A stretch of DNA of 64,000 nt from Cyanobium sp. M30B3 (GCA_018399015.1 CP073761.1:3010465-3074464); one strand, 5' to 3'. Shown: positions 13,133 to 42,546, numbered from the stretch's first letter. Numbers and translations are program-made. The notes: generated from the letters alone by a model not told the origin.

Positions 13133-13954
13133 TCAGGGCCGTGTCCCGTCAGAAGAAACCACCGATGCATGGGGCCAGCTCGCCTGCCAGGCCTTGAACT
13201 GCCGCAGCCAGTTCTCGTTGAGGGTGTCGGACTGGCGACGAAGTGGGGCAGGCGGAACGGCATGATCGGCAAGGCCTAGATGATCGTATAAGGCGCGGAT
13301 CGTTGCCTCGTAAGCATCGGAAAGATCCTCATAGTGGATGGTGAAGGGCTGGATGCCAAGTGCTTGAAAATGGTTGTCCCAACCTTCATCCCACTTTCGT
13401 GCCATGGCGAGGTAGTGCGCGATCTGCTCGGGCCGAAACGTGGGGATCGATCGTGCCGAGCCTGCGCTGGTCCACTGACCGGTCTGTGCGGCCCTGCTCC
13501 ATGACACCGCTTGACGTTCGTGATCGAGGCGCCGGATCCGTAGCCAGGTGATGGGAGCACCCCAGTAATTGAAATCGAGCCCCCGTGCCAGCAGCACGCC
13601 TGCATAGTCGCCCCACATCACCTTCAGACTGAGCACCCCCTGAGCGCCCGTCTCTCGCCGGCCGATCCGATCGAGCATCTTCACAATCTCTTCCGTGGAG
13701 TAGGCGCTGCGAGGCATGGCCTGACCGGGCGAGCGTGCCTCCAGGATCTGACGGAGCGATGGTCTCGCTTGCAGCATCTCCAGATTCGACAATCGGCGCA
13801 GAGCTTCTTCATGAAACAGTTCATGGGCTCTTCTTCCCATCGCACCCGTCCGGGCGAGCGCGGCGGCCAGCAGAGTGCTGCCGGTGCGGCAGCTGGCAGC
13901 GAGGACAACAACGCGGCTGGGCCAGCGATCAGCGGCGACGGACAACGGCACCAA
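13133..13954 (-). CDS. Stf0-type (trehalose 2-sulfotransferase-like) sulfotransferase
   Basis: PAPS-binding loop VVVLAASCRTGSTLL. The C-terminal block HYEDL...LGL....P..PLRRQSD.LNENW..QF matches the Stf0 family signature as I recall it. TTG/GTG start. Confidence 0.75.
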   Translation of the reverse strand: MVPLSVAADRWPSRVVVLAASCRTGSTLLAAALARTGAMGRRAHELFHEEALRRLSNLEMLQARPSLRQILEARSPGQAMPRSAYSTEEIVKMLDRIGRRETGAQGVLSLKVMWGDYAGVLLARGLDFNYWGAPITWLRIRRLDHERQAVSWSRAAQTGQWTSAGSARSIPTFRPEQIAHYLAMARKWDEGWDNHFQALGIQPFTIHYEDLSDAYEATIRALYDHLGLADHAVPPAPLRRQSDTLNENWLRQFKAWQASWPHASVVSSDGTRP

Positions 13955-15047
13955 TGGGACCCACCAGCCAGAGAAAATGATTCAACCTCACGGGCCAGCT
14001 GGGTGCACTCCGCATCAGCCACCAGGCCATGGATGCCCGAGATATCACCGCGGCAGCTCCCTTCAGGCGCAGCCGATCCGCGTGCACCTTGGTGAGCGAC
14101 AGGCAGCCGGCCCAGGCCTCTGCCGCGAGCCGGGTGGAGCGCCGATCGATGGGAACCCCGTCGATCAGATCGGGAGACAGGTGGGCGGCGGTGGCCAGGG
14201 CTAGGCGCAGGTTGGACTGGCGGCATGCCAGATCCCGCACCCGCTGCAGGCCGCAGCATTCGCTCAGCTCGATGATGTCCACCAGATGGCGCAGGGTTGG
14301 CCAGGCCTCCTTGCGGCCATGCTGGGCCAGGTGCTCCAGGGCCTGCAGGGGCGCCAGGGTCCGCACCCCCTGCCCCACTGCGGGCAGAGCGACCGACTGG
14401 CTCAGGGCCTGTTCGAAGGAAAAGGAGAACTCCCGGCCCACATGGCCTAGGCGCCAGTGCAGATCGACGTCGGAGTGTCTGGGGTGGGTGAGGGTGAGCT
14501 CGTAGCTGAAGCGCACCAGGATTCCCCAGCGCCAGCCATCCCCCTGCTGCGGCAGGGTCCGGTGCTGCTCACTGCGCCGCCAACCGGCTCTGGCCAGGGC
14601 CGATTCCGCGGCACCCAGATCCGAGGCGCGTACCCAGACATCGACATCGCCGCGGCCTCGGGTGGCGGGTTGCCGGTGGCTCAGGGCCGGCAGGCACACC
14701 CCCTTGACCACGAGATGGTCCACCCCGGCCACGCTCAGTGCCTGGGCCGCCGTAACAGTGCCCACGATGTTGGCCAGCCCCAGGAGGTGCTCCTGCCGCC
14801 GCAGGGCCTGAAGCTTCGCCACGGCATCCGGCGGCAGGCCTAGCGGATCAGCCCAGGGGGTCAGCAGCGGAATCACGCGGTGACGCGCGATCGCCTCGAT
14901 CAGGTCGTCGGTGCTGGCGGCGCTGGGAGGCGGCAGCGTCAACGGCGCCAGCGCAGACCCCGGATGGCGTTGCTGCAACACCCGGCTGACGGCCGTCGCC
15001 ACCCAGCGGCTCGCGGCCAACGGAACGGCAGCCCGGGCGGTGCTCAT
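13929..15047 (-). CDS. Nucleotidyltransferase-fold protein (NTP_transf_5-like), catalytic motif retained
   Basis: Trimmed to the ATG at 15045-15047, which overlaps the upstream stop (ATGA). VVKGV..., RGRGDVDVWVRASDL..AE.AL.RAGW is the G-x-D-x-D nucleotidyltransferase core. DVDLHWRL follows. Confidence 0.65.
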   Translation of the reverse strand: MSTARAAVPLAASRWVATAVSRVLQQRHPGSALAPLTLPPPSAASTDDLIEAIARHRVIPLLTPWADPLGLPPDAVAKLQALRRQEHLLGLANIVGTVTAAQALSVAGVDHLVVKGVCLPALSHRQPATRGRGDVDVWVRASDLGAAESALARAGWRRSEQHRTLPQQGDGWRWGILVRFSYELTLTHPRHSDVDLHWRLGHVGREFSFSFEQALSQSVALPAVGQGVRTLAPLQALEHLAQHGRKEAWPTLRHLVDIIELSECCGLQRVRDLACRQSNLRLALATAAHLSPDLIDGVPIDRRSTRLAAEAWAGCLSLTKVHADRLRLKGAAAVISRASMAWWLMRSAPSWPVRLNHFLWLVGPIGAVVRRR

Positions 15048-16009
15048 CGCTCCAGCTGGGCGAGCAAGGCCGCCGGAGCGGGGTCGTCCACCAGCTCGCC
15101 GGAGCCGATCAGACGGGTGCGGAAAGCCTGCGGGAGTCTTCTGTGGCGAGACCTGGCCTGAAGTCTGGCCGCCACGCCTTCCGTATCGCTCACGCGCAGC
15201 AGCTGCATGACGTCGGCCACCCACTGGGGGGAGAGGCGCTGGCAGGGCCGTGCGCTTTCCAGGATCAGCTGCAGCAGCAGATCGCCAGGGTGCTGCAGCT
15301 GCCTGACCGTGCCCGCGACCGCCAAGGGCTGAGCCCCCTGCCAGGCCATCGAGTCGGCCACGGCCCAGGGAGCCCCCAGGCAGAGTCGCAGCGGCTTCGC
15401 CGCGGCTGCGTCATCCGGCCCGGTGAAGCTCCAGTTGTCGCCCGCGGGCAGCAGCCGCCACCGCAGCCACCGGCGCACCCCCACCATGCGGGGCCGCCAG
15501 CCCAGCAGGGTCAGGGCTTGCGCCGCCTCGCTCCGATGCCGTGGTCCGACGGCCATGGTCAGCGTCTGAATGGGCCGGGACCCTACGTCGCCGCTCAGAC
15601 CGACCAGGGCAGCCTCCCCCACCAGCAGGAGCGGAATCCGGCGCTGAGCGAGCGCCTCGACCGCAGGACGGATGCTGTCCCACAGGGCTTGATTGCGCAC
15701 CCAGGTCCGCCGATACAGCCCCCTGACCCGGCCGGACACGCTGTCGTCCCTGGGAATCACGCCATCCCGGCGCACGAGCAGCGGCAGCAGCCGCTGCGAA
15801 GCGCTGTCGATCGCATCGAAATCCACCCGATGGCGCCATTCCTGCCAGGCGTCTTTTGCCACGGTGGGCGTCCCGAAGGCGGCACGCAGCAGCAGCCGAT
15901 GTTCAGGTGCCAGCGGAGCGAGCGGATCAGCCCTGATCAAGGGAGGCGCGGGCCTGTCGGCGCCGGTGATGGGCACGCACCACGGCCAGGAGATCGGTGT
16001 TCCCCGCAT
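15044..16009 (-). CDS. NTP_transf_5-like protein, degenerate subfamily (no D-x-D)
   Basis: It shares an N-terminal HRLLL...AW.EW motif with the gene at 24179-25093. The position equivalent to D-x-D reads TLTMAV. The start is uncertain (ATG 16009 or TTG 15940) and it overlaps the upstream GT2 gene. Confidence 0.5.
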   Translation of the reverse strand: MRGTPISWPWCVPITGADRPAPPLIRADPLAPLAPEHRLLLRAAFGTPTVAKDAWQEWRHRVDFDAIDSASQRLLPLLVRRDGVIPRDDSVSGRVRGLYRRTWVRNQALWDSIRPAVEALAQRRIPLLLVGEAALVGLSGDVGSRPIQTLTMAVGPRHRSEAAQALTLLGWRPRMVGVRRWLRWRLLPAGDNWSFTGPDDAAAAKPLRLCLGAPWAVADSMAWQGAQPLAVAGTVRQLQHPGDLLLQLILESARPCQRLSPQWVADVMQLLRVSDTEGVAARLQARSRHRRLPQAFRTRLIGSGELVDDPAPAALLAQLER

Positions 16010-16643
16010 GCGTGGCCCGCAGGCTGATGTTGGACGTGTGAACCCGACGGCGTGCGACAAGCTCAGGGAGCGTGGCCAGGCGCAGACCCTCGTGACGGGA
16101 GCGTGAAATCCAGTCGATGTTCGATTTTGTTCTGCGGGAGGCATCGAGGGGCCCCACCCGATCGAAGGCCTGTCGCCGCACCATCAGTGCTTGAAGCAGC
16201 TCCACCGGTCGGGGACCGAGCACGAGGCGGTAGCGGCGAGCCACCTCGGGGCCGAGTTCCGGGCTCACGAACTGCTCGACCAGGCCGAACACCCCATCCA
16301 ACTCGGGATGGGCCTCCAGATACTCCCGCCGGCAGGCCAGCGAGGAGGGGGTGCAGAGATCGTCGTGATCAAGAAAGGTCAGCAGCGTGCCTGTGCAAGC
16401 GGCGATGCCCCGGTTGATGGCGGCATATGAGCCGGCGTTCTCCTGCCGCACCACCCGCAGAGCCGGACCGTAGGCAGCCAGGATCTCTGGGGTGCGATCG
16501 GTCGAGCCATCGTCGACAACGACGATCTCCTCAGCCGGACGGCTCTGGGCCAGCAGCGAATCGAGGGCTTCGCGGATGTACCGCTCCCCGTTCCACACGG
16601 CCATGATCACGCTCAGGCGCTCGCCCTGCAGGCCTGTCGTCAT
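15927..16643 (-). CDS. Family 2 glycosyltransferase
   Basis: LSVIMAVWNGERYIREALDSLLAQ, EIVVVDDGSTD, FLDHDD (DxD) are present. Its ATG overlaps the kinase-like gene TGA (ATGA). Confidence 0.85.
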   Translation of the reverse strand: MTTGLQGERLSVIMAVWNGERYIREALDSLLAQSRPAEEIVVVDDGSTDRTPEILAAYGPALRVVRQENAGSYAAINRGIAACTGTLLTFLDHDDLCTPSSLACRREYLEAHPELDGVFGLVEQFVSPELGPEVARRYRLVLGPRPVELLQALMVRRQAFDRVGPLDASRRTKSNIDWISRSRHEGLRLATLPELVARRRVHTSNISLRATHAGNTDLLAVVRAHHRRRQARASLDQG

Positions 16644-17677
16644 GGCACCACCCCCTGCGCGAGGTCCTGCACCGCCGCCAGCACGCCGTCAGGGTGCGTA
16701 CCGAGCCGCAGGCGATGGCAGGGGAGCTCGCTCACCAGGCGGCGCAGGCCAGCCAAAGTGTTTCCTCCCCCTTCCTGCAGGGACCCCTCGACCAGGGAGC
16801 GCAGCGCCTGCCGGGAGGAGACGCGCTCCACGACCGTGCGCTCCTGCCCGCTGATCTCCAGCAAGGCCACCGCCCTCAGGGGTGCGCTGGGGATCAGGCC
16901 GGCAGCCGGGTCGAGCACGGTCTGGCCGGGCTCGATCTCAATCGCCAGGTGCTGCACGGCGGGGAGGCGGGCGAAGGCTTCCGGTTCCAGCTTCGCCAGG
17001 CCGAACACGGGGTAAGCCGTGGGCGACGGGTCGAACCGAACCAGGCAGGCATCATCCGCCAGGAAGCCCAGTCCAGCTGCCAACGCCGACATCGTGGTGG
17101 TGGATTTGCCAGACCCGCTGGCGCCGGCGAGGGCCACGGCACCAGCAGAGGAGGCCACGGCACCGGCATGCAGCAGGGCCATCCCATGGGCGTCGGCCCA
17201 CCAGCCGATCACGGTGCGCAGGGGGGAACGCCGCAGCCAGGCGGGAAGATCAAAAGCCGACGCAGCCTGAACGAAGACCCGGCCTTGCTGCCGGTCATAG
17301 ACGGTGAGCAGCCGCATCCAGCGGTCATAGGTGATGCGCAGCCGGCCCTGGGCCAGGCCCTGGATCGCCCTGGAGCGGCAGAAGGCGTCGTCTCCCCATG
17401 GCGGCGCAGGGGGGGCCACTCCCGTGGCCGCCCGATCCCAGCAATCGATCGTCAGCACCGGGACAGGGGCCTCGGAGGGCTGAGCCTCCCGGAAGGCATG
17501 CGCGAAGGCGGGGAAAAGGTGATCGGCCAGACCGGCTCCGGCGCAGCGCAACCTGATGGCGTGGCCACCAAGGTTGAGGTGCCGCAGCGCATGCCCCGGG
17601 GACGCGGCTGCAGCCTGATCGAAGGCGCGCCCCATGGCGGCAACGAAGGCATCGAGCTGGGCCTCAGTGGTAGGCAC
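16640..17677 (-). CDS. HPr kinase/phosphorylase-like P-loop protein (HprK-related kinase), copy A
   Basis: LHAGAV...GAVALAGASGSGKSTT (Walker A) is followed by GFLADD, as in the HprK C-terminal domain and the lasso-peptide/HPr-rel-type kinases. The GTG start abuts the PqqD-like stop (TGAGTG). Confidence 0.72.
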   Translation of the reverse strand: MPTTEAQLDAFVAAMGRAFDQAAAASPGHALRHLNLGGHAIRLRCAGAGLADHLFPAFAHAFREAQPSEAPVPVLTIDCWDRAATGVAPPAPPWGDDAFCRSRAIQGLAQGRLRITYDRWMRLLTVYDRQQGRVFVQAASAFDLPAWLRRSPLRTVIGWWADAHGMALLHAGAVASSAGAVALAGASGSGKSTTTMSALAAGLGFLADDACLVRFDPSPTAYPVFGLAKLEPEAFARLPAVQHLAIEIEPGQTVLDPAAGLIPSAPLRAVALLEISGQERTVVERVSSRQALRSLVEGSLQEGGGNTLAGLRRLVSELPCHRLRLGTHPDGVLAAVQDLAQGVVP

Positions 17678-18154
17678 TCAGCGATCCACCGCAGGGGCGG
17701 GCAGGGGCCAACCCGCCTCATCCACCTCGTGAATGGGATCGATCAGCAACAGATCCTCGAGATCCTCAAAACCCTGAAGCTGCGGTGGCGCGTAGGGGGC
17801 GCGAGGCTGATGGGGAGGCAAAACACCGTCGGTGCTGGGGCTGCCTTCGGCAGAGCTGGCGAGGCCGGAACTCAGCAGGGCCGCCACAAAGGACTCGACG
17901 TCGGCGCGGGCCTGGGCCTCATCCACCTCGAAGCGGGAGACAAGGGCCTGAACCATGGCATCGATGCCGCCACCAGCCGCAGCCACGCTCCAGCAATCGG
18001 CGCCAGCAGCCTGAATGGCGTAATAGGCCCCAGTCTCAAGATTGATGGCGATCACCTCATCCTCGAGACGCTCGTGATTGATCGCTGGACTAATCGAGAG
18101 ACGATTCATATCCGATTCGCAAAGTAGAAAAGGGCTGGAATTCAGGGGAGCCAT
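17678..18154 (-). CDS. PqqD-family (RRE-type peptide-binding) protein with a long C-terminal tail, copy A
   Basis: The core HERLEDEVIAINLETGAYYAIQAAGADCW...FEVDEAQARADVESFVAALLSSGL fits the PqqD/RRE fold pattern. A Ser/Pro linker then leads to LQGFEDLEDLLLIDPIHEVDEAGWP. The ATG at 18154 is 6 nt after the GT4 stop; an alternative ATG lies at 18109. Confidence 0.7.
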   Translation of the reverse strand: MAPLNSSPFLLCESDMNRLSISPAINHERLEDEVIAINLETGAYYAIQAAGADCWSVAAAGGGIDAMVQALVSRFEVDEAQARADVESFVAALLSSGLASSAEGSPSTDGVLPPHQPRAPYAPPQLQGFEDLEDLLLIDPIHEVDEAGWPLPAPAVDR

Positions 18155-18160
18155 TACGGC

Positions 18161-19285
18161 TCAGTGGACGGCCATGCGAAGGCCAGCGTAGATGGCTTCG
18201 CAGTGACGGACATATCGGTCGAGAGAATACTCCGACTCAGCACGCGCGCGCGCGGCGGCCCCCAGCCGTGCGGCACGCGTACGGTCCTCCAGGAGGGCGA
18301 CAACCGCCCTGGCCAGCGAAGGCACGTCGCCTTCGGGAACGAGCAGCCCGGTGACATCCGCCAGCACCGCCTCGTTCAACCCGGCGCAGTCGCTGGCCAC
18401 CACCGGCCGGCCGGCCCAGGCCGCCTCCAGGGCCACCAGGGGCAGTCCTTCGTAGCGCGAGGGCATCAGCACCAGGGCGCTCGCGGCCATCAGCTGACGC
18501 ACCGCATCCTCATTCTGCAGACCGAGGAACTGGATGGCGTCCTGCAGGCCCAGCTGGGCCGCCTGAAACTGCAGAGCCCTGGCATTGGGGCCCATACCGG
18601 CCACGAGCAGTCGGGCCATTGGCCGCTGCGCCCGGATCGCGACCATGGCCTCGATGGCGCGGTCGAACCCCTTCTGGCTCACGAGCCGGCCCACACAGAG
18701 CAGTTGGTCGGGATCGGGATCTCCTGCCTGGTGCTGCGGTGGCTGGATCCCGTTCGGGAGGACTTCGAGCCGGTCCGCGATCGCAGGGGCGTACGCCAGG
18801 GTGTCATGGAGACAGCTGCGGGAGACGGCAGTGACGCGATCGGCCGACTCCAGCAGGCGCCCCATGCGCGTGAATGACATCGGCTTCAGATGCTGCAGTC
18901 GCAGATGTTGCGTCATCACGTTGTGAATGCTGACGACCAACGGCGGTCGCTGCGATGCCGTCGCCTGCGGCGTGCGCTGGTAGAACCAGAGCAGCGCCCC
19001 CATGTCATGGGAGTGGACCACCGTGGGTTGATACGAATGGAGGATTGCGCGCAGGCGGCGATCTACGGCCAGAAGGGCTCGCGGATCCCGTGCCTGGATC
19101 GGCTGGATCAGATTCAGGCGATGCACACGCACGCTCTCCACCTGAACCGGCCCACCGACCTCTGATGTGATGATCTCAACCTCATGCCCGTGCTCGCTCA
19201 GCAGGCGACAGGCCTGGAGCAGCAGCATTTCGATGCCACCCACACCAGCAGGAAGATAGGCGCTGGTGAGAAAAAGGATGCGCAT
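18161..19285 (-). CDS. Family 4 (GT-B) glycosyltransferase
   Basis: MRILFLTSAYLP..GG.E, and C-terminal PSRYEGLPLVALEAAWAGRPVVAS (E-x7-E region) are present. It is the first gene of the minus-strand operon. Confidence 0.85.
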   Translation of the reverse strand: MRILFLTSAYLPAGVGGIEMLLLQACRLLSEHGHEVEIITSEVGGPVQVESVRVHRLNLIQPIQARDPRALLAVDRRLRAILHSYQPTVVHSHDMGALLWFYQRTPQATASQRPPLVVSIHNVMTQHLRLQHLKPMSFTRMGRLLESADRVTAVSRSCLHDTLAYAPAIADRLEVLPNGIQPPQHQAGDPDPDQLLCVGRLVSQKGFDRAIEAMVAIRAQRPMARLLVAGMGPNARALQFQAAQLGLQDAIQFLGLQNEDAVRQLMAASALVLMPSRYEGLPLVALEAAWAGRPVVASDCAGLNEAVLADVTGLLVPEGDVPSLARAVVALLEDRTRAARLGAAARARAESEYSLDRYVRHCEAIYAGLRMAVH

Positions 19286-19588
19286 GAGAACGATCAAAGG
19301 AACGGGGCGGCAACGAAGGATGGGGTGCGCCTGCCTTGATCGCCCTTGGATGCGATGGCCTCCGGGTGCTGTCTACGGCGATCCGCAAGTGCTACGACCT
19401 ACGACCTCCGCCCATCCTCTCAAATTCAAGCCCGGTGGAAACACAGCGCCGACCATTCCGAGGCAAGCGCTCTTCCCCAACTGAGCAGGGTGCGAGTAAG
19501 TTATCTGCGTCTTCCGACGCTGTTTCGTTGACAGAGCTTGCCGGGAGCGGCAGGCTGAGGAAAAACTAACCCTTCACAATCGGAGTTT
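19286..19588. promoter_or_regulatory. Divergent intergenic control region between the two PqqD/kinase operons
   Basis: This is the only sizeable non-coding gap between the oppositely oriented operons. It has a TTGACA hexamer at 19528-19533 and GGAG at 19582-19585 before the ATG at 19589. No convincing -10 box was seen. Confidence 0.3.
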
Positions 19589-20014
19589 ATGGCCAACATC
19601 CGGTTTGCTGATACCGCGAGATTTCCGCACGATACTATCGACGGCGAAACCGTCCTGATCGACTCCGAGAAGGGACACCTGTTCCTCTTTCTGGGGATTG
19701 GCCCTCAGATCTGGGAGCGCCTGCTCACGGGAGCTTCGGTGGATGGGCTCGTGAACGAAGTGACCGCACGCTATGGAATGGCAGCAGCGGCGCCAACCCG
19801 GGTGTTTCTGGATGCACTCGAACAGGCACAGATGCTCCACGATGGATCCTCACCCTCGGCTGCTCCCGCTACCACCTCGACTGCCTGGCCAGAGAGCTTC
19901 GTGGCTCCAACGTTGGAACGTTATGACCAGATCGCGGACATCATCTCCATGGATCCCATCCATGAGGTCGATCCCAGCAAGGGATGGCCTCACCTCCCGG
20001 GCGAGAAGGCGTGA
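19589..20014 (+). CDS. PqqD-family (RRE-type) protein with a long C-terminal tail, copy B
   Basis: The core HDTIDGETVLIDSEKGHLFLFLGIGPQIWERLL...LVNEVTARYG...FLDALEQAQML is followed by a Ser/Pro/Ala linker, then LERYDQIADIISMDPIHEVDPSKGWP. Confidence 0.7.
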   Translation: MANIRFADTARFPHDTIDGETVLIDSEKGHLFLFLGIGPQIWERLLTGASVDGLVNEVTARYGMAAAAPTRVFLDALEQAQMLHDGSSPSAAPATTSTAWPESFVAPTLERYDQIADIISMDPIHEVDPSKGWPHLPGEKA

Positions 20015-20991
20015 GTGCGGGAACAGGCAGGCCTTTTTCCGTCCGGATTGCCGGCAGGGCGCTGAGGGTCACCGGGGATGCGGGCACCGATGCGATCCGA
20101 CCCGCATTCGCAGGCGTGATCGAACCAGTGGGGCTTGAAAAAGCAGCCCTGCCAAGCCTGTGCGTGAGCGTGCTCCCGGATCCGGCATCAAAGCCCGGGT
20201 GGGCCGGATTGGAGATCGGATCCCATCGTGCTCCGGACGGTTGCCTTGCCATCCTTCGGCGCGGACCGTCGAGCGTCGAGCAGTTCATCCCGGGGGCAGA
20301 GCCGAGCCTGCTTTTGGAGGCATCGCCGGCTGCGCTGGCCAGTGGAGACCTGCGATCCCAACCGGCCCACCACGCACTCGCAGCCTGGCTGTCCGGTCCC
20401 CGGATGCAGATGGTCCACGCGGCAGCGGTGGCGCTCGATGGGCGGGCCGCGCTGTTCATCGGGGTTGGAGGACGCGGGAAAACCACAACTGCTCTGGTCT
20501 GTGCCCAGGCGGGATTCGGATTCCTTGGCGACGACCTCTGCGTGGTCGAGGCTGGAGATCCGGCGCGGGGAACTCCGCCAACAGTCCATGGCGTCTACGC
20601 GACATCGAAGCTGAATGTTGATTCCCGGCAACGCCTGCAGGCCAGCGACTGGCCGGTGCTCGGGATCACACCCAGCGGAAAATCTGCGGTCGCACTGCCC
20701 CCGCAGATCACCTTCCAACGCTCCGCCCGTCTGGTGGCGATCGTGGCAGTTCGGGCGGGCGACACCTCCGTCCCGCAGCCGCGTCGCCTCCCGCCGCGCC
20801 AGGCCATCCAGATGCTTGGTTCCACGGCCCTGCCAATCGCCAGCGGATCGGGCACCCCGGCACACTGGCTTTCCACCGCAGCGGCGCTGGTGCGGGAAGT
20901 CCCCGCATTCGAGCTCGGGCTTGACTGGGAACTGGATCGCGTCCTTTCGGCCGTGGCCGGGCTGTTGAAGCCCGGCGGCAACCAGGCATGA
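19984..20991 (+). CDS. HPr kinase-like P-loop protein, copy B
   Basis: VHAAAV..DGRAALFIGVGGRGKTTT (Walker A) is followed by GFLGDD. The start is either the ATG at 19984 or, more likely, the GTG at 20011, which overlaps the PqqD-like stop (GTGA). Confidence 0.72.
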   Translation: MASPPGREGVSAGTGRPFSVRIAGRALRVTGDAGTDAIRPAFAGVIEPVGLEKAALPSLCVSVLPDPASKPGWAGLEIGSHRAPDGCLAILRRGPSSVEQFIPGAEPSLLLEASPAALASGDLRSQPAHHALAAWLSGPRMQMVHAAAVALDGRAALFIGVGGRGKTTTALVCAQAGFGFLGDDLCVVEAGDPARGTPPTVHGVYATSKLNVDSRQRLQASDWPVLGITPSGKSAVALPPQITFQRSARLVAIVAVRAGDTSVPQPRRLPPRQAIQMLGSTALPIASGSGTPAHWLSTAAALVREVPAFELGLDWELDRVLSAVAGLLKPGGNQA

Positions 20992-22088
20992 ACCCGACCC
21001 CACCCTTCGACACGCCGGTGGTGGTCATCCTGTTCAACCGACCGCACCGCATCCACGAACTGATTGGCGTCCTGCGCGACGTACGACCCGCCCGGATCCT
21101 GGCGATTGCCGACGGTCCACGGGCCTCTCACCCGGCTGATGCCGCCGCCTGCAGCCAGGCCAGGGCCGTCCTCGACGGAATCGACTGGCCCTGTTCGATC
21201 GAACGCGAGTTCGTGGAAGCCAACCTCGGCTGCGACCGCCGCATCGTCTCCGGACTCGACTGGGCCTTCTCCCGCGTTGATCGCGCCATCGTCCTCGAGG
21301 ACGACATCCTTCCTCACCCCAGCTTCCTTCCGTGGGCAGCAAGCATGCTCGATCGCTTTGGGCCCGATCCCTCGATTGGCATCATCTCCGGCCGGAACCC
21401 GCTCGGGACGTGGGGTGACGCCACCCAGGACCACATACGCGCTCCATACGGCAGCATCTGGGGATGGGCGGCCACGGCACGGGTGTGGCGCCATATCCAT
21501 GCCTGCGACCTCAGCGGTGACCCAGCAAGTGCCGAGGCAGATCTCCAACGGAGCGGACTCGATCCGCTGCTGCAAGCCCACTGGACGGTCGCGCTGAAGA
21601 TGTTCCGCCGGGGCGAACTTGTGGCCTGGGATGTCCTCTTCTCACTCCGGCAAGCGATGCTCGGCCTTCACTCCATCCACTCACCCGTCAACCTGACCCG
21701 GAACACAGGCATAGGGGCCGAAGCCACCCGCACGCTCTACGAGGATGACTTCAGCGCATTGCTCAAAGCCCGGGAGGCGAGACCCCTGCAATCACCGGGA
21801 ACGGTTTACCAGCCAGAGCAGGCATTCGCCCGCGCTGCACTCACTGTTCAACTTCTCGCCCGATGCCGGAACCCGACGATGGCAGTCAGGCTCGCACGGA
21901 TGATCCAGCGCGGAACGCCGGTGCCACTCGATGAAGCAACCCGTCATCATCTGACGCCATTCCTCCACGCCCTCGAATCGCTCCCGCTGCTCGAGCACCT
22001 CGCGGATCAGGGCATGACTTCTCCGACATTTGACTGTTTGCTCGGGGCGATGCGGAAACTTGCCGCCAGCAGCCAGCCCAGCCCATGA
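20988..22088 (+). CDS. Putative glycosyltransferase (GT-A fold, GNT-I/HlpA-like)
   Basis: VVVILFNRPHRIHELIGVL, ILAIADGPR, and an IVLEDDILPHPSF acidic motif are present. ATGA overlap with the preceding gene. Confidence 0.55.
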   Translation: MNPTPPFDTPVVVILFNRPHRIHELIGVLRDVRPARILAIADGPRASHPADAAACSQARAVLDGIDWPCSIEREFVEANLGCDRRIVSGLDWAFSRVDRAIVLEDDILPHPSFLPWAASMLDRFGPDPSIGIISGRNPLGTWGDATQDHIRAPYGSIWGWAATARVWRHIHACDLSGDPASAEADLQRSGLDPLLQAHWTVALKMFRRGELVAWDVLFSLRQAMLGLHSIHSPVNLTRNTGIGAEATRTLYEDDFSALLKAREARPLQSPGTVYQPEQAFARAALTVQLLARCRNPTMAVRLARMIQRGTPVPLDEATRHHLTPFLHALESLPLLEHLADQGMTSPTFDCLLGAMRKLAASSQPSP

Positions 22089-22771
22089 ACCACCTAGTTC
22101 CCGTCTCCGTCATTGTTCCCGTACGCAACGCGGCTGCCCATCTCGCTGCAGCCCTCGCCAGTGTCCAATCGCAGCAACCCGCTCCCGCCGAGGTGATCGT
22201 CATCGATGGAGGATCCACCGACGACAGCGTCGCCATCGCGCGTGCCCACGCAATCCGGGTGATCGCCCAGGAGGGTCGGGGCCTCGCGGCGGCGCGGAAT
22301 CAAGCGATCCGCGCAAGCCAGCAGCCGAACATCGCGTTCTGCGACGGCGATGATCGCTGGGCACCGGGCGCGCTCGCCCGCCGGATGGACGCGCTGGCGA
22401 CGAACCCTCAAGCCTGGGTGGTTATCGGCCGGGTGATACGCGAACAACTCGCCAATACCGAGGCCTCCGCGGCGCAACTCGAACAAGTCGGCCGCCCGGT
22501 CCCAGGATTCACTCCGGGTGCCATGGTTGCTCGCCGAAAGACTTTCGAAGAAATCGGGTTCTTCGACGAGACTCTAAAGATCAGCGGCGACAGTGACTGG
22601 TTCATCCGTCTCCAGGAATCGCCCCGACCTGCCATCCGGATTGAGGATGTCGTCCTCTACAAGGGCGCACGAATGACTAGCCTCTCCGGCAACGTTGAGG
22701 CCTATCGCCTCGAACTCCTGACTGTGGCGCGCCGGTTTATCGGGCGAAGCCGGGGACAACCATTGCCATGA
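22085..22771 (+). CDS. Family 2 glycosyltransferase
   Basis: VSVIVPVRNAAAHL, EVIVIDGGSTDDS, FCDGDD are present. ATGA overlap at both ends. Confidence 0.85.
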   Translation: MNHLVPVSVIVPVRNAAAHLAAALASVQSQQPAPAEVIVIDGGSTDDSVAIARAHAIRVIAQEGRGLAAARNQAIRASQQPNIAFCDGDDRWAPGALARRMDALATNPQAWVVIGRVIREQLANTEASAAQLEQVGRPVPGFTPGAMVARRKTFEEIGFFDETLKISGDSDWFIRLQESPRPAIRIEDVVLYKGARMTSLSGNVEAYRLELLTVARRFIGRSRGQPLP

Positions 22772-24189
22772 AGCTCCTGCACATCATCCCTCGATTCATC
22801 GGCGGAGGCCCGGAGCGTCATCTGCTTGCCTTGGCTGAAGCCTGGCGGTCCGCTGGCCTGCAGACCCGCCAACGCATCCTCGTCCTCGACCCGCCTGCAT
22901 CGGCGCCACTCCTGATCAAGGCCCGACGTCTCGGAATCGAACTCCTGATTGCGCCCGATCTGTCCGCTATCCGGAACGCGATCGCCGAGGCTGACATCGT
23001 TGAGGTGGAGTTCTGGAATCACCCTCGCCTCCATGACCTCCTGCGTCAGGAACTGCCACAGGCACGCTGGATCCTGAGAAGTGCCGTAGCCGGCACCACA
23101 CCACCCCAGGTCCTGACCGAAGCAATCGGATCCGTCGCCGACATGGTGATCGTATCAACTGATGCAAGCCTGCAGACGCCGGCTGTCTGCGAAGCACGGG
23201 CAAGGAATTGCCGCCTCGAATCCATCCCTGCCCTGGCAGATATGAAACGCCTGGAAGGAATCACGGCCAGCCCTCACGTAGGCATCCGGGTCGGTTACCT
23301 CGGGCTCGTGGAACCCACCAAGATGCATCCGCGCTTCGCCAGGCTGGCTGCGCACATCACGAACCCGGAGGTTCAAATCGAGATTTATGGAGGGGGCTCC
23401 TGGAAGGCGGAACTTCAACAGCAGTTCGAAGGATTAGGGATGTCGGATCGAGTGAGGTTTCATGGCCACGTTGAGGACATTCGATCCGCCTTCGCCACGA
23501 TGGATATCTTCGGGTATCCGCTCGTCCCGGAAACATTTGCGACCAGCGAAAAGACAATCCAGGAGGCCATGTGGGCGGGAATTCCTCCGGTCGTCCTCGC
23601 CGGCACCGGTGCCACCCTGTTGGTCCAGCATGAACACACCGGACTCGTCTGCGAACACGAAGCGGACTACCCACATGCGATCGATCGCCTCGCCGGGGAT
23701 CCGATCCTGCGCCGACGGCTCGGCGAGGCAGCACATGCCTTCGCCAGAGAGACATTTGACCCTGTTCGCAACGCAGCACGGTTCCACGAGATCTTTGAAA
23801 CCGCGCTATCCCTTCGGAAGCGACCGCACGTCCCCCTGCCAGGACGCGATGCCCCCGGAGCACTGCGGTTTGTGCAAAGCCTCGGGATGCTCGGCCATGC
23901 CTTCCAAACCAGCCTGATGGCCGACACTTCGCTCTCGAAGGACCAGATTGGAGCCGCCGAAGACGCGATCCGCCATGCGTCCCCCGTCATGACGCAGGGC
24001 GAAGGCGGCATCGTCCACTATCGCAACACCTATCCCCAGGATCCTCATCTCCACTACTGGTGCGGATTGATTTCGCTGCAAGCCGGAAACTGGGATGGAG
24101 CCCGCCGGGAATTCGACGCAGCCATCCAACTCGGGTTGGACCGCGCCCGGGTCCAGGACCACCTCCCGAACCCAGCCCATGCAGCTTGA
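22768..24189 (+). CDS. Family 4 (GT-B) glycosyltransferase with a C-terminal helical (TPR-like) extension
   Basis: MKLLHIIPRFIGGGPERHLL, and the E-x7-E region ATSEKTIQEAMWAGIPPVV are present. The C-terminal extension of about 100 aa contains YWCGLISLQAGNWDGARREFDAAIQLG. Confidence 0.78.
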   Translation: MKLLHIIPRFIGGGPERHLLALAEAWRSAGLQTRQRILVLDPPASAPLLIKARRLGIELLIAPDLSAIRNAIAEADIVEVEFWNHPRLHDLLRQELPQARWILRSAVAGTTPPQVLTEAIGSVADMVIVSTDASLQTPAVCEARARNCRLESIPALADMKRLEGITASPHVGIRVGYLGLVEPTKMHPRFARLAAHITNPEVQIEIYGGGSWKAELQQQFEGLGMSDRVRFHGHVEDIRSAFATMDIFGYPLVPETFATSEKTIQEAMWAGIPPVVLAGTGATLLVQHEHTGLVCEHEADYPHAIDRLAGDPILRRRLGEAAHAFARETFDPVRNAARFHEIFETALSLRKRPHVPLPGRDAPGALRFVQSLGMLGHAFQTSLMADTSLSKDQIGAAEDAIRHASPVMTQGEGGIVHYRNTYPQDPHLHYWCGLISLQAGNWDGARREFDAAIQLGLDRARVQDHLPNPAHAA

Positions 24190-25093
24190 TCAAGGGATTG
24201 GTGCCGCTCACGGTCAGGTGTGGCGAGGACCAGAGCCCAATCGCCAGCACAGACTCCTCCTGACCGCCTGCCGCGAACCCACCGAGGCCGCTCTGGCAGC
24301 CTGGAACCGTTGGATCCAGACATGCCGCTTCAATGATCAGGACCCAGCCAGCTTCGAACTCGCCTCGCTGGCGGTCGGACGGCTCGGCGCACTGGCAGGG
24401 GAGGGATCAGAGGCTGTCCGCTGCCGCGGTTGGACCCGTCGCGCCTCTTTCTTCTCCAGGATGGCAACCGAGGCCACTGAGCGGCTGCAGGAAGCATCCC
24501 TTCGCCTTGGCCTGCCTCTGATCGGAGTCGGGGATATCGCGACCTTCAGAGCCGGCCTTCAGTTCTCAGGCCGTCCATTTCCGGTGCGATCCCTCGAATT
24601 TCACGTCCCTGGCGCCTCGAAAGACGACCTCAGGCAACTCCACGCCGCGGCCATGCAAGGGGCTGCCGGCGAAGCCATCCGCACCCGACGGCTCGCGTTG
24701 ATCCTCCGCCCGGACGCCAGGCACCCAGACGTCACCACACCCGCCGGACACATCGTGTGGCTCGCCAATCGCAACTGGTGTCGCTTTCCACCCGGCCGGA
24801 TCCGCTGGATCCTTGAGGTCGCTGCAATTCTGGAGTCAGCTGCCGAACCCGACATGCTGCCCCTTCAGGTCGTCGGTGAAGCATGTCGGATCGAGGCCAT
24901 CGCCGCAGTGGCCGAAGCCTTCCGCTGGATCCATGCCACGAGCCACGATCGCCGGCAACTGGATGCCCTTGTCACGGCCCTCTCTGCGCAACCCACTTCC
25001 TGCAGCTCCCGGATACGGCTCTGGCACGCTCGGCACCAGATCGGACTTGGCCTGCGGCCCCGTTACTCCCGGTATCTTCAACAAGCGCGGTAA
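24179..25093 (+). CDS. NTP_transf_5-like protein, degenerate subfamily
   Basis: Trimmed to the ATG at 24179. The N-terminus HRLLLTACREPTEAALAAWNRW parallels EHRLLLRAAFGTPTVAKDAWQEW of 15044-16009. The D-x-D position reads SLEFHV. Confidence 0.5.
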   Translation: MQLDQGIGAAHGQVWRGPEPNRQHRLLLTACREPTEAALAAWNRWIQTCRFNDQDPASFELASLAVGRLGALAGEGSEAVRCRGWTRRASFFSRMATEATERLQEASLRLGLPLIGVGDIATFRAGLQFSGRPFPVRSLEFHVPGASKDDLRQLHAAAMQGAAGEAIRTRRLALILRPDARHPDVTTPAGHIVWLANRNWCRFPPGRIRWILEVAAILESAAEPDMLPLQVVGEACRIEAIAAVAEAFRWIHATSHDRRQLDALVTALSAQPTSCSSRIRLWHARHQIGLGLRPRYSRYLQQAR

Positions 25094-40177: not shown

Positions 40178-41218
40178 GTGTCCGCTCAGCAATTTGTCAC
40201 GATTGAGCGCTGCCCGCTTTGCGACAGCACTGCCGCGACTGAACACTCGGCGCCGGAAGCTAATCTCTACTCCGAGAAACTTGCGGAGATCGTGAGAACC
40301 GACGAGCGGCAGATGCTTCGCCAATATGGCAATTGGCGATGTTCGGATTGTGGTCTTGTGTTCAAGCGGCGCTGGTTCGCACCGGCGGTCATCCGCGAGT
40401 TGTTCAGCACCCCCGTTGCCTCCCATCCCAAGGGCTGGGACACCGTGCTCGCAAGGTTTTCCGCACATGGATTCCAGCGAACAGTCGAGTTCTGGGCCAT
40501 GGCCATCGGCCGTCAGGAGATACCGGATGTGCGGCGCGGCGAGCGGGAGTTGCTTTCGATCGTCGATTCGATCAGGGCACCAACGGGCTTTGAACCCGTC
40601 GCGATCGCGGCGGCTGTCGCCAGCGGTGATGTGGGGATGGTGCGGGCGCTCACCCCCGCGATCACAGCCTCGATCAGCGAGCCAGCAGCCTTCAAGAGGT
40701 TCTCTGGCTTCCGCTCTCTCGAGCTCTGGGAGTATCTGCAATCCCGGACTGGCGGATTCACCGAATACGCCGAGGTCGGCTGCCCGCTATGGGGCCTCCT
40801 CGCGCTGGCCGCGGACTTCGGCTGCCGTGCCACCTATCTCGTTCGCGATGAACCGAATTACTGGGGCCCCGGCTGCAGGAGCTCCGGCGTGCACTGCCTG
40901 GACCGACTTCTCGTCGACCGGCGCATTGGCTCCGCCCCATGGTCGGCCCCTGATCACCAGGCGATGATCGGCCTCTTCCAATACCTCGATCACCTGATCG
41001 CGCCGAGCCGCTTTCTCAAGCAGCTGTTTGCCAAGGCCGGCTCGGCTGCCATCATCATGGACGGCATCGATGCTCCAGTAGCGATCCAGCACGTGACCGG
41101 CTGGACTGACGACAGTTTTGCTTTCATCGCCCGGATATTCAGCAAGCACCTGCATACCGACTTCGACCCCATCCGCCCTTCCGGCAACCGCCTGTTTCTC
41201 CTCACCCCGAAGCGTTGA
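40178..41218 (+). CDS. Hypothetical protein with an N-terminal Cys4 zinc-ribbon; possibly a class I SAM-methyltransferase-like fold
   Basis: CPLCDS...(about 30 aa)...CSDCGLVF is followed later by YAEVGCPLWGLLALAA, which loosely resembles SAM motif I. GTG start. The function is not established. Confidence 0.4.
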   Translation: MSAQQFVTIERCPLCDSTAATEHSAPEANLYSEKLAEIVRTDERQMLRQYGNWRCSDCGLVFKRRWFAPAVIRELFSTPVASHPKGWDTVLARFSAHGFQRTVEFWAMAIGRQEIPDVRRGERELLSIVDSIRAPTGFEPVAIAAAVASGDVGMVRALTPAITASISEPAAFKRFSGFRSLELWEYLQSRTGGFTEYAEVGCPLWGLLALAADFGCRATYLVRDEPNYWGPGCRSSGVHCLDRLLVDRRIGSAPWSAPDHQAMIGLFQYLDHLIAPSRFLKQLFAKAGSAAIIMDGIDAPVAIQHVTGWTDDSFAFIARIFSKHLHTDFDPIRPSGNRLFLLTPKR

Positions 41219-41229
41219 CATCTACCGGC

Positions 41230-42546
41230 ATGTCGATCCTCGACGACCACCCCGACTGCTCAGCCCTCGACGCCGAGGGCATGCGGATGCTGGCCCTGCT
41301 TGAGCAGCTGTTGCCCATCCACCGCAGTCTTGCCGGGCCAGGCATCCGCGAGACCCTCGCGATCCTCGGCTCGTCGCTTGAGGGTTTTACCGTGACGCAG
41401 GTTGCCTCGGGCAGTCGCGTGCTGGATTGGATCGTTCCCGAGGAATGGCACCTGCGCTCCGCATCTCTGGAGTCTCCAGACGGGCACCGGCTGTGCGACG
41501 TGGCTGACAACACGCTCCACGTCGTGGGCTACAGCACAGCCGTGGACGAGAAGCTTTCCCTCGCCGAGTTGCAACCGCACCTCTACTCACTGCCCGACCA
41601 GCCCGACGCGATTCCGTACGTCACCTCCTACTACGAGCGGAAATGGGGATTCTGCCTGTCGCATCGGCAGCGTGAGAGCCTGCCGGAGGGCACGTATCAC
41701 GCTCGCATCGACGCAAATCACGTTGCTGGATCGTTGGACTACGGCCAGCTCGTGCTGCCGGGTCGGACAGCTGATGAAATCCTCTTTTCCACCTACTGCT
41801 GCCATCCGGCGATGGCCAACAACGAGCTGTCGGGCCCCGTGTTGGCCGCAGCCCTGGCCGAGTGGCTCGCTGCCCTGCCGGACCGTCGCTACACCTACCG
41901 ATTCGTGTTCGTTCCGGAAATGATCGGATCGGCGGCCGTTCTCGAAACTCAGCGCGAGCACCTAAGAAGCCATGTGCGGGCCGCCTTCAACCTGACCTGT
42001 GTGGGCGATGAGCGCACCTGGTCGTTCCTTCCCTCGCGGCTGGGCGATACCTATGCCGATCAGGTCGCCCGCCATGTACTCAGGCACGCCGTGGGCAGCT
42101 ACGACACCTATGCCTGGCGCGACCGTGGCAGCGACGAAAGTATGTACTGCGCTCCCGGCATCGATATCCCGATGGTGTCGATCATGCGCTCAAAGTATGG
42201 TACTTATCCCGAATACCACACTTCGCTTGACACGCCGGGCCGCGTGGTCACGGCCCGAGGCCTCGCTGAAACGCTCGGCTTACACCGCACGCTCGTTGAG
42301 ACGCTCGAGCACGACTGCGCACCCCGCGCTCTCGTGCTCGGCGAGCCCCAGCTCGGCCGGCGCGGCCTCTATCCTCAGACTAGCATCAAGGGGAGCACAG
42401 CAGTGGTGAAAGATCTGCTCGATCTCATCTCCCACGCCGACGGTCACACCAGTCTGCTCGACATTGCCGCCCGCTGCGACCGTCCGCTGTGGTCGCTGCT
42501 GCCGCACCTCGAAGTACTCGTCACCGCCGGAGTGATGGAGCGGTGA
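41230..42546 (+). CDS. Aminopeptidase-like (DUF4910/DUF2172, M28-like) domain protein typical of polysaccharide loci
   Basis: LLPIHRSLAGPGIRETL, VLDWIVPEEW, YVTSYYERKWGFC, CHP.MANNELSG, FVFVPEMIGS match my memory of COG4310-type proteins. An alternative TTG at 41215 overlaps the upstream stop. Confidence 0.68.
   Translation: MSILDDHPDCSALDAEGMRMLALLEQLLPIHRSLAGPGIRETLAILGSSLEGFTVTQVASGSRVLDWIVPEEWHLRSASLESPDGHRLCDVADNTLHVVGYSTAVDEKLSLAELQPHLYSLPDQPDAIPYVTSYYERKWGFCLSHRQRESLPEGTYHARIDANHVAGSLDYGQLVLPGRTADEILFSTYCCHPAMANNELSGPVLAAALAEWLAALPDRRYTYRFVFVPEMIGSAAVLETQREHLRSHVRAAFNLTCVGDERTWSFLPSRLGDTYADQVARHVLRHAVGSYDTYAWRDRGSDESMYCAPGIDIPMVSIMRSKYGTYPEYHTSLDTPGRVVTARGLAETLGLHRTLVETLEHDCAPRALVLGEPQLGRRGLYPQTSIKGSTAVVKDLLDLISHADGHTSLLDIAARCDRPLWSLLPHLEVLVTAGVMER

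Follow-up and report, generated by a model that had tools for sequence, protein, structure and literature searches.

Why should two PqqD-like proteins from neighbouring, divergent gene cassettes end in the same short peptide, when the rest of their sequences have little in common? This question is raised by a 64,000-nucleotide stretch of the Cyanobium sp. M30B3 genome (hereafter the window; coordinates are counted from its first letter), in which the two cassettes lie within a polysaccharide island. Copy A (Q_A; 17678..18154, minus strand) has a longest open reading frame of 158 aa and 511 homologues, and matches the Pfam PqqD family PF05402 with 48.7 bits (E 9.7e-13). Copy B (Q_B; 19589..20014, plus strand; 141 aa) is identical to QVL52792.1 and reaches 32.8 bits (E 8.7e-08), so that both proteins lie above the family cutoff of 23.4 bits. 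The true start of Q_A is probably Met16 (about 18109), giving a protein of 143 aa at about 17678-18109, because homologues have this length and NCBI entry QVL52790.1 is annotated with 143 aa. The initial annotation described both proteins as terminating in DPIHEVD-x2-3-GWP, and their endings indeed read as given there: the motif spans D139-P150 in Q_A (DPIHEVDEAGWP; 17705..17740, minus strand) and D122-P134 in Q_B (DPIHEVDPSKGWP; 19952..19990, plus strand), the latter being a 13-residue spacing variant. The loose similarity reported for the remainder corresponds to an overall identity of 26%, and the DPIHEVD codons (gat ccc att cac gag gtg gat in copy A, gat ccc atc cat gag gtc gat in copy B) differ, as stated, at three synonymous third positions. 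The contrast in size to ordinary PqqD/RRE proteins also holds, since 71% of the proteins with PF05402 only are 110 aa or shorter (PMC12710340).

The shared motif is real, but the twelve residues first recognised are only the end of a module of about 30 residues, [RK]xP[FY]xxPx[LVI]x[KR][YF]xD[ML]xxLLLLDPIHEVDExGWP, which opens with a previously unnoticed [YF]xxPx[LVI] segment. Alignment of homologues, which had been proposed as a check, showed the motif in essentially all of them. Positions D139, P140, H142, V144, D145, G148, W149 and P150 are invariant in a 49-sequence alignment, and the same eight are ~100% conserved among 309 distinct tails. A profile of the tail alone retrieved 3,029 clusters (50% identity) at E<=1e-3 and 1,015 at E<=1e-10. 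Nearly all of these matches are PqqD proteins of 140-160 aa with the module at their C-terminus. Among 185,579 species genomes, 303 carry the tail, and these belong to more than 12 phyla. At the DNA level, 98 instances of DPIHEVD..GWP are spelled by 80 distinct 21-nt strings, with all synonymous codons in use. Conservation of the motif is thus not a matter of chance: eight positions are fixed across more than 12 phyla and the synonymous sites are saturated. DPIHEVD..GWP is among the most conserved short peptides that we have met in an uncharacterised protein. Copy B is an atypical member, with a DP..GWP spacing of 13 residues that is rare (6 of 309 tails), a degenerate helix (YDQIADIISM versus the consensus Y[DT]DMQDLLLL) and its closest relatives in Cyanobacteria and Chloroflexota.

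Short matches of the tail profile (50-120 aa) were considered as stand-alone tail peptides or free precursors and were rejected, as most of them carry the end of helix alpha3 and are therefore N-truncated. One candidate, P0162, overlaps a preceding PqqD ORF of 81 aa by 13 nt, and with 2.4x coverage of the contig this arrangement points to a frameshift rather than to a free tail peptide. In the literature searched, neither the tail nor the cassette was found to be described, and the copies of NCBIfam and Pfam that were searched contain no curated model for the tail or for the accompanying kinase family; the Pfam copy lacked PF27840, which is listed for homologues of the kinase.

The first half of the module points to the recognition elements of lasso peptide biosynthesis. 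The RRE (PqqD) domain of Q_A covers the Pfam stretch of residues 33-98 (17861..18058, minus strand). Its best fold matches in the PDB are TbiB1 with the TbiA leader (5V1V/5V1U; E 9e-6, 30% identity) and 6JX3, with target-normalised TM scores of 0.85-0.90; the AF2 secondary structure fits PqqD/RRE, and the Q RRE profile matches BsfB1 with an E-value of 1.5e-22. Q shares with these B1-leader complexes the winged-helix PqqD fold and the [YF]xxPx[LVI] motif; unlike lasso B1, it carries the leader-like sequence in the same polypeptide. Lasso leaders possess a YxxPxL motif at positions -17 to -12 (PMC10368454; PMC6784204), and the first half of the tail fits this motif in sequence and in spacing. 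When the tail profile was compared with 177,635 distinct PDB sequences, the top match was the TbiA(beta) leader from the same crystal structure as TbiB1, with an E-value of 1.2 that is not significant alone. In Q_A the leader-like segment is Y121-L137 (YAPPQLQGFEDLEDLLL; 17744..17794, minus strand), assigned from conservation, pLDDT, the TbiA(beta) match and covariation; Y121, P124, D131, L135 and L136 are each at least 90% conserved. The corresponding segment of Q_B is F104-M121 (FVAPTLERYDQIADIISM; 19898..19951, plus strand), where P107 is invariant and the helix part is degenerate.

The YxxPxL-like strand is predicted to sit in the peptide-binding site of Q itself. The AF2 model of copy A gives residues 121-130 a pLDDT of 96 and places a strand at 127-129; in an independent run for copy B, residues 101-110 reached a pLDDT of 97 and the strand fell at 108-112. 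Support for this docking in cis comes from pLDDT and DSSP strand calls in the AF2 models, together with covariation. Among 361 sequences, the top covarying pair links Tyr/Phe121 of the tail to Asp/non-Asp85 of helix alpha3 (148 D-Y versus 7 D-F) and L/M132 of the tail covaries with A/S46 of beta3; only these two chemically sensible pairs were used, as the mutual information is dominated by clade-defining positions and confounded by the split into a Tyr-clade and a Phe-clade. The tail-RRE covariation fits docking in trans equally well. In that case the strand of one Q would bind the RRE of another, and the resulting dimers or chains would scaffold the enzymes, with DPIHEVD..GWP in the Q-Q interface. 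A linker of about 20 residues would permit such domain swapping, and in one locus (L137) three tandem RRE units are each followed by a leader-like strand. However, for both copies the monomer models already make this contact within one chain, at very high confidence, and do not place the invariant motif against the RRE, and the partly degenerate motif of L137 (DPIHEAGEAGWP) is kept in just one of the three units. We therefore regard docking in trans as very unlikely.

The second half of the module behaves differently in the models. DPIHEVD..GWP has a pLDDT of only 60-70 (~69 in copy A, ~60 in copy B), because of which it appears to be exposed; burial of the tail in the fold, which would have spoken against the initial proposal, is not what the models predict for this part. 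The same observation bears on the simplest reading, namely that the tail merely stabilises an RRE subfamily as a fourth strand and cap and has no role towards a partner or as a substrate. The first half is indeed predicted as an integral, well-packed strand, but the most conserved part is left unpacked. Moreover, the motif is nearly identical in copies A and B, whose domains are 26% identical, and the canonical lasso B1 fold does without a tail (BsfB1 has 102 aa). A purely structural extension is accordingly the reading to which we give least credence, and it is hardly probable. One position of the tail was read as structural: at position -9, 95% of tails have D, T, S or E, which was considered as a phosphosite with phosphomimetic substitutions. 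This candidate was rejected because the predicted helix has its N-cap at exactly this residue.

Which partners could an exposed peptide have? In related loci the cassette has a conserved order that starts with the Q gene (PqqD domain and tail), followed by an HprK-like kinase (K), between one and six small GT2 glycosyltransferases, in some cases an ABC exporter (inside 15 of 60 cassettes) and an NTP_transf_5 nucleotidyltransferase (N). The initial annotation proposed a tethered peptide for neighbouring enzymes. This idea survives, because hardly any homologue lacks the motif and the models do not bury DPIHEVD..GWP, and K directly adjoins Q in 48 of the 60 loci with enough downstream sequence; the annotation had missed the GT2 partners and the leader-like strand. 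When loci were instead anchored on the kinase, and thus picked blind to the tail, a tail ORF lay immediately upstream of K in 47 of 62. The most constant partner is GT2, found in 56 of 60 loci. K cannot be the sole partner, since some loci (L001, L008, L011, L015, L016 and L020) have an intact tail and no K within 8 kb.

In the window, K_A (16640..17677, minus strand) begins with a GTG start directly after the Q_A stop codon and in frame, and the ORF of K_B (19984..20991, plus strand; 227 bits with the K profile) shares 31 nt with the end of Q_B. Small GT2 glycosyltransferases are encoded at 15927..16643 (minus strand; PF00535, 1.1e-28) in cassette A and at 22085..22771 (plus strand; PF00535, 3.5e-27) in cassette B. 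Cassette A contains an NTP_transf_5 nucleotidyltransferase (13929..15224, minus strand; PF14907, 2.5e-28, 99.8 bits) and a second, divergent one (15044..16144, minus strand; 5e-08, 33.3 bits), both above the cutoff of 31.2 bits. A possible N-like protein of cassette B (24095..25093, plus strand) matches ORFs in seven related loci with phmmer; it falls below the PF14907 cutoff and has no Pfam or NCBIfam family. Just upstream of Q_A lies a GT1/GT4 glycosyltransferase (18161..19297, minus strand; PF00534, 7.4e-38) whose position recurs in related loci: the order GT1 then Q is found in L001-L005, and P0229 is a GT1-Q fusion. Cassette B has a further GT1 glycosyltransferase (22768..24189, plus strand; PF00534, 1.1e-18) and, between K_B and GT2, a 366-aa protein (20988..22088, plus strand) that has no family match and has relatives in four related loci. 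Cassette A ends with a Stf0-type sulfotransferase (13133..13954, minus strand; PF09037, 4.1e-24), and sulfotransferases recur in related loci.

The kinase leads back to lasso peptides. The K profile matches HPr kinase (1JB1/2QMH; E 2.4e-6), the lasso kinase BsfK over the whole catalytic domain (E 1.2e-15, ~170 residues) and the kinase in the lasso cluster of L160 (E 4.8e-19). Its GxSGSGKST P-loop, H170, G185, G188, G190, K191, D208 and D209 are invariant in 42 sequences, as expected of an HPr kinase/phosphorylase-like protein. K thus shares the catalytic domain and the invariant P-loop, His and Asp-Asp with the lasso tailoring kinases PadeK, ThcoK, PsmK and BsfK, although its N-terminal ~160 residues have no counterpart in BsfK. 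The cassette also resembles the systems of HPr-rel-A and HprK-related kinases A and B (TIGR04352, TIGR04355), which pair a PqqD-family protein with an HprK-related kinase of unknown function. K_A and K_B are not members of these two families, because they score 24-36 bits against a cutoff of 200 and match locally in the P-loop region only. NTP_transf_5, sulfotransferase and ABC genes likewise accompany lasso clusters with these kinases and the nucleotidyltransferase PsmN; the Q cassette differs by its one to six additional GT2 genes and by K-GT2 fusions (five cases). The triple RRE-kinase protein of L137 is the only convincing RRE-K fusion; long ORFs in L006, L026, L051, L079, L031 and L041 were considered as natural Q-K fusions and rejected as ORF-calling artefacts or overlapping frames.

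Despite these relationships, the cassettes do not look like lasso clusters. Against the lasso B1 models NF033530 and NF033536 (cutoffs of 70 and 80 bits), copy A scored 41.1 and 40.1 bits and copy B 19.9 and 23.4 bits. Neither a lasso cyclase (Asn-synthetase-like, C) nor a leader protease (transglutaminase-like, B2) was found among the window ORFs scanned, and no recurrent extra family, these two included, was found in 80 related loci; a genuine lasso cluster (L160) was picked up by the same approach. A separate precursor gene was not apparent either, as no small ORF family was common to more than two of the 80 loci, which leaves the tail as the only leader-bearing peptide present. The segment that follows the leader is invariant in Q and hypervariable in lasso systems. 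The distance from Y121 to D145 (24 residues) equals that from Y(-17) to Asp8 in BsfA (core GTSGNEVD). This register is probably coincidental, because the tail profile scores only 0.7 bits on BsfA, the register would put Ile or Leu at position +1, and no cyclase was found.

Taken together, we tentatively favour a reading, to which we would give slightly less than an even chance, in which Q is an RRE with its own leader-like strand, and the invariant acidic motif that it displays is a handle by which enzymes dock or are activated. Q would be a non-catalytic RRE/PqqD protein, descended from a lasso-type B1, to which a leader-like recognition sequence was fused at the C-terminus. According to the AF2 models and the covariation, the [YF]xxPx[LVI]..[YF]xD[ML] segment would fold back as a beta-strand into the leader-binding site between beta3 and alpha3. 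Docking of the strand would fix the start of the tail and leave the acidic LLLLDPIHEVDExGWP exposed. The exposed peptide may then be offered to the adjacent HprK-like kinase, and probably also to GT2 and NTP_transf_5, recruiting or activating these enzymes as the RRE-bound leader does in lasso pathways, presumably without being consumed. A precedent is the RRE BsfB1, which strongly raises the activity of BsfK, a homologue of K (PMC10368454), and the fusions of RRE with K, of K with GT2 and of GT1 with Q also speak for a partnership with the enzymes. The cassette would subsequently act on a sugar-containing product in the polysaccharide island.

Engineered fusions that place a leader in cis on LynD or LctM yield constitutively active enzymes. 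The concept is similar, in that a tethered leader fills the recognition site without a free precursor; those are laboratory constructs, whereas Q is natural and widespread, and its activating role is proposed. A second analogy, which implies no kinship in sequence or fold, is offered by the C-terminal tip of SSB and by the amino-group carrier LysW (EDWGE end), in which a flexible low-complexity linker leads to a short, invariant acidic-plus-aromatic tip that several pathway enzymes recognise. The Q tail (net charge about -6.6) likewise combines a linker with an acidic-aromatic motif, but its motif is not the chain end and is followed by 3-17 variable residues.

Could the tail be a substrate instead? 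The RRE would then be fused to its own precursor, and the cassette enzymes would covalently modify His, Asp/Glu or Trp of DPIHEVDExGWP by phosphorylation, nucleotidylation or glycosylation, with the GT2s extending a glycan and the product either remaining as a carrier or being released and exported. RRE, leader-like strand and a further peptide succeed one another as in a RiPP precursor bound to its RRE, and by homology the peptide that follows a lasso leader is the substrate. An invariant 'core' has precedent in the RRE-dependent cofactor precursors PqqA and MftA. The lack of a separate conserved small ORF and the ABC exporters of some cassettes would fit, as would the number of GT2 genes, which varies while the acceptor is invariant. 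In addition, K and N have characterised relatives only among enzymes that work on lasso precursors, where the kinase phosphorylates Ser and the nucleotidyltransferase is needed to place a hexose on that phosphate (PMC6993621; PMC8498205; PMC10368454). Known relatives of K phosphorylate Ser or Thr (PMC10368454; PMC6993621), in the lasso systems on a free precursor, and BsfK does not accept Tyr (PMC10368454). However, neither the 309 distinct tails nor the set of 361 contains a conserved Ser, Thr or Cys, and a Ser or Thr follows GWP in only 179 of 361. The lack of a conserved hydroxyl residue weakens the case for the tail as a true kinase substrate. No protease that could free a product was found in the window or the 80 loci, and one 15-kDa protein per product would be costly. 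To our knowledge, there is no precedent for these enzyme families modifying His, Asp or Trp. We consider a self-contained precursor or carrier of this kind rather unlikely. More doubtful again is the specific proposal that the tail serves as a covalent assembly platform, with a phospho- or glyco-conjugate built on the invariant His, Asp/Glu or Trp; Q would then be a self-recognising RiPP-like precursor/carrier, priming either a glycan or a small product that is glycosylated. If true, this would amount to a novel class of pathway dependent on an RRE: it would derive from lasso tailoring enzymes, have neither cyclase nor protease, and use side-chain chemistry that is new.

RRE/PqqD domains serve as a universal handle in mining for ribosomal peptide natural products, and the assumed partner is a separately encoded precursor. 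The family described here is large, carries the recognition sequence on the same chain as the RRE and belongs to a cassette without RiPP core enzymes, often within polysaccharide loci. If the tail acts as a docking handle, Q would be the equivalent in nature of the engineered leaders in cis, and RRE modules would have been recruited to sugar metabolism; if it acts as a carrier, it would represent a new kind of modified peptide or of protein-primed glycan. Genome mining is affected either way, because such PqqD matches are not lasso clusters. The 12-residue motif offers a sharply defined target for mutagenesis and mass spectrometry.

Q_A (17678-18154, − strand) and Q_B (19589-20014, + strand), both PqqD/RRE proteins by Pfam, share 26% identity and end in the same motif, DPIHEVD-x2-3-GWP, as the initial annotation had stated (copy A, DPIHEVDEAGWP; copy B, DPIHEVDPSKGWP). 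The codons reported there for the motif were exactly those observed, and no other ORF of the window matched the motif or the PqqD profile. The length of 158 aa given for copy A is that of the longest ORF; the protein is probably 143 aa long and starts at Met16, since homologues and the NCBI annotation have the same length (residue numbers here refer to the 158-aa form). Across the fetched loci, the motif occurs 98 times in 80 different 21-nt spellings, and every synonymous codon is in use. Thus, the proposed purifying selection on the peptide is correct and applies to the whole family.

The tail was carried by 120 of 120 copy A homologues among the matches listed. In an alignment of 49 sequences it is more conserved than the PqqD domain: D139, P140, H142, V144, D145, G148, W149 and P150 are invariant, and conservation reaches 90% or more at Y121, P124, D131, L135, L136, I141, E143 and A147. 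A tail-only profile (~40 residues) searched against 1.84 billion representative proteins matched 3,029 clusters with E<=1e-3 (1,015 with E<=1e-10), nearly all of them proteins of 140-160 aa matched at the C-terminus. Short hits resembling stand-alone peptides were rejected as truncated fragments or frameshifts. The consensus of 309 distinct tails is [RK]xP[FY]xxPx[LVI]x[KR][YF][DTS]D[ML]xxLLLLDPIHEVDExGWP, and DP..GWP spans 12 residues in 303 of them and 13 in the other 6; copy B shows the longer spacing. In a collection with one genome per species, relatives of Q are encoded at 303 loci from Actinomycetota, Chloroflexota, Acidobacteriota, Cyanobacteria, Deltaproteobacteria/Desulfobacterota, Verrucomicrobiota, Bacteroidota, Gemmatimonadota, Nitrospirota, Spirochaetia, Clostridia, Patescibacteria and others.

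The AlphaFold2 model of copy A (mean pLDDT 86) is a canonical RRE of three strands and three helices. Its best fold matches in the PDB were the lasso-peptide RRE TbiB1 with the TbiA leader (5V1V/5V1U; E 9e-6 to 6e-4, 30% identity) and another lasso B1-leader complex, 6JX3; the RRE profile of Q matched the lasso RRE BsfB1 at E 1.5e-22. In lasso leaders, positions -17 to -12 read YxxPxL (PMC10368454; PMC6784204), and the [YF]xxPx[LVI] of the first half of the tail has the same shape. Among the 177,635 distinct chain sequences of the PDB, the one that the tail profile matched best, though at an E-value of only 1.2, was the TbiA(beta) leader of 5V1U, 20 residues long (KTYTAPTLVEYGGLERL, aligned with raYaaPvvekYDDLeeL). 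This leader partners TbiB1 in the second-ranked fold match, the top-ranked 5V1V containing TbiB1 with the TbiA(alpha) leader. It is unlikely that one crystal structure yields both the leader and the domain match by chance. The first half is also the most confidently predicted stretch outside the core in both copies, which were modeled from differing alignments (copy A, residues 121-130, pLDDT 96, strand 127-129; copy B, residues 101-110, pLDDT 97, strand 108-112). Among 361 sequences (effective number ~290), the highest-scoring covarying pair joined tail position 121 to position 85 of helix alpha3 (D-Y 148 versus D-F 7; Phe with Ala, Ser or Gly 130 versus 9), as expected if a contact between the Tyr hydroxyl and a carboxylate was gained and lost jointly. 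Another pair joined L/M132 of the tail to A/S46 of strand beta3. Both pairs make chemical sense for binding in the manner of a leader, are partly confounded by a clade split and are compatible with cis and trans contacts alike. Copy A (Tyr121) clusters with actinobacterial-type sequences and copy B (Phe at this position) with cyanobacterial and Chloroflexota-type sequences.

The two cassettes of the window are divergently oriented. Cassette A (− strand) comprises a GT1 glycosyltransferase (18161-19297), Q_A, the HprK-like kinase K_A (16640-17677), a GT2 glycosyltransferase (15927-16643), two NTP_transf_5 nucleotidyltransferases (15044-16144 and 13929-15224) and a Stf0 sulfotransferase (13133-13954). 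Cassette B (+ strand) comprises Q_B, K_B (19984-20991), an ORF at 20988-22088, GT2 (22085-22771), GT1 (22768-24189) and an ORF resembling NTP_transf_5 (24095-25093). At 17675-17682 (−), the TGA stop of Q_A is followed at once by the GTG start of K_A in the same frame, so that one stop codon parts tail and kinase, and the K_B ORF overlaps the final 31 nt of Q_B, GWP codons included. By eye, the Asp-x-Asp of the Pol-beta fold is visible in the 13929-15224 protein (GDVDVWV) and seemingly missing from those at 15044-16144 (−) and 24095-25093 (+), which could be paralogues without activity, or else partners.

This organization recurs in 80 related loci as Q, K, one to six GT2 genes, sometimes an ABC exporter, and the NTP_transf_5 gene (N), frequently with GT1 upstream of Q. 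In 60 of the loci, 6 kb or more of sequence follows Q; of these, K was present in 54 (directly adjoining Q in 48), GT2 in 56, N in 38 and the exporter in 15. When loci were instead fetched via K, with the tail left out of the search, a tail ORF lay immediately 5' of K in 47 of 62 with room upstream and elsewhere in the locus in three more; three of these kinase-anchored loci had divergent motifs (DPIHDFD..GWP, DPIREFD..GWP and one VWP variant). Sugar epimerases, SDRs, GT1s and sulfotransferases were the only other recurrent families in the related loci, and no small ORF was conserved across the 80. Three Chloroflexota loci (L008, L011, L015) have ABC exporter genes directly after the tailed Q and neither kinase nor GT2 inside 8 kb; therefore, the tail may also have a non-kinase partner.

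Like HPr kinase/phosphorylase, K has the His, the Walker A residues and the Asp-Asp pair. Its profile matched HprK structures at E 2.4e-6 and the lasso precursor kinase BsfK at E 1.2e-15 over ~170 residues, whereas the N-terminal ~160 residues of K are family-specific. HprK-like kinases of lasso pathways phosphorylate a precursor Ser or Thr (PMC10368454; PMC6993621), BsfK is greatly enhanced by BsfB1 (PMC10368454), and hexose addition to the phosphate needs the NTP_transf_5-type PsmN (PMC6993621; PMC8498205). As lasso pathways use a homologous kinase, RRE and nucleotidyltransferase, the set of Q, K, N, ABC exporter and sulfotransferase is related to the tailoring enzymes of those pathways. However, the cassette has gained GT2s and lacks the class-defining lasso enzymes: an Asn-synthetase-like cyclase and a transglutaminase-like protease were absent from the window ORFs scanned and from the related loci. 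A classical paeninodin-type lasso cluster (L160, 2907-6823), found among the weakest hits of the kinase profile, contains precursor candidates, an HprK-like kinase, the cyclase and a tail-less 87-aa PqqD, and serves as an internal control for the appearance of a true lasso locus.

At least five K-GT2 fusions of ~600 aa were found (L010, 13992-15878; L049, 10212-12053; L067, 13451-15265; L095, 689-2467; and protein P0301), and their recurrence implies that kinase and glycosyltransferase act on one molecule. The order Q, GT2 genes, N and K-GT2 refers to L010, L049 and L067; on the short contig of L095, Q was not found. In a single GT1-Q fusion (P0229, 542 aa), GT1/GT4 is N-terminal to a complete tailed Q, paralleling the GT1-then-Q gene order of the window and of L001-L005. 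In the metagenomic locus L137 (830-3193), one ORF encodes three tandem PqqD/RRE units followed by K; a leader-like [YF]xxPx[LV] strand follows each unit, and the motif is kept, partly degenerate, in the first only (DPIHEAGEAGWP).

DPIHEVD..GWP, in the second half of the tail, comes after a short helix (~132-138), and its low pLDDT (~69 in copy A, ~60 in copy B) suggests that it is not packed on the domain. This half is strongly acidic (mean net charge -6.6 over 22 residues). Our preferred interpretation is that Q is an RRE which has acquired a leader of its own: this strand is predicted to sit in the recognition groove and the invariant acidic 12-mer to stay exposed, where it would be presented to the kinase, which is translationally adjacent, as well as to the glycosyltransferases and the nucleotidyltransferase. 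On this interpretation, to which we give a chance just short of even, the tail is a docking or activating handle and not a consumed substrate. The main alternative is covalent modification of the tail, either as a carrier or as a self-contained precursor; it follows directly from homology, since a leader is normally followed by the substrate peptide. We regard this as plausible but less likely. The docking handle is favored by the lack of any conserved hydroxyl or thiol residue in the tail (half of the tails have neither Ser nor Thr beyond GWP), by the finding of no protease, by a cross-phylum invariance above that of the enzymes, which is typical of a hub motif for several partners, and by the relaxed motif of L137, the sole natural RRE-K fusion.

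Pfam covers only the PqqD part of Q, Q proteins reach the score of no NCBIfam model, and full-text searching yielded no account of the tail or cassette. According to passages of a 2025 RRE survey retrieved by term search (PMC12710340), PF05402-only proteins are mostly <=110 aa and RRE-glycosyltransferase fusions occur; these passages do not mention a leader-in-cis architecture. We classify Q as lasso-type RRE-leader recognition, the new parts being the fused architecture and the pathway context. PF27840 is annotated on K homologues (P0270, P0274 and others) and has no entry in the Pfam copy used, so a recent Pfam entry for the K family may exist.

The genome is Cyanobium-like, and proteins of Cyanobium sp. 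M30B3 match copy A and copy B identically. Both cassettes lie in a glycan-biosynthesis island at ~13-54 kb (13000-54800) with many glycosyltransferases, a pyruvyl transferase, NeuB, a CMP-sugar cytidylyltransferase, UDP-glucose dehydrogenase and a HepA-like ABC exporter. Its GC3 is 0.65-0.8, against >0.9 in the bordering housekeeping genes (ndk, thiO, argJ, gatB, speA, alaS), and overall GC is as low as 0.51-0.58 in the stretch from 32 to 38 kb; the island looks horizontally acquired and mosaic. Amid its sugar-nucleotide genes, a DUF4910/DUF2172 protein with a C-terminal winged-helix HTH_47 domain is encoded at 41215-42546 (+).
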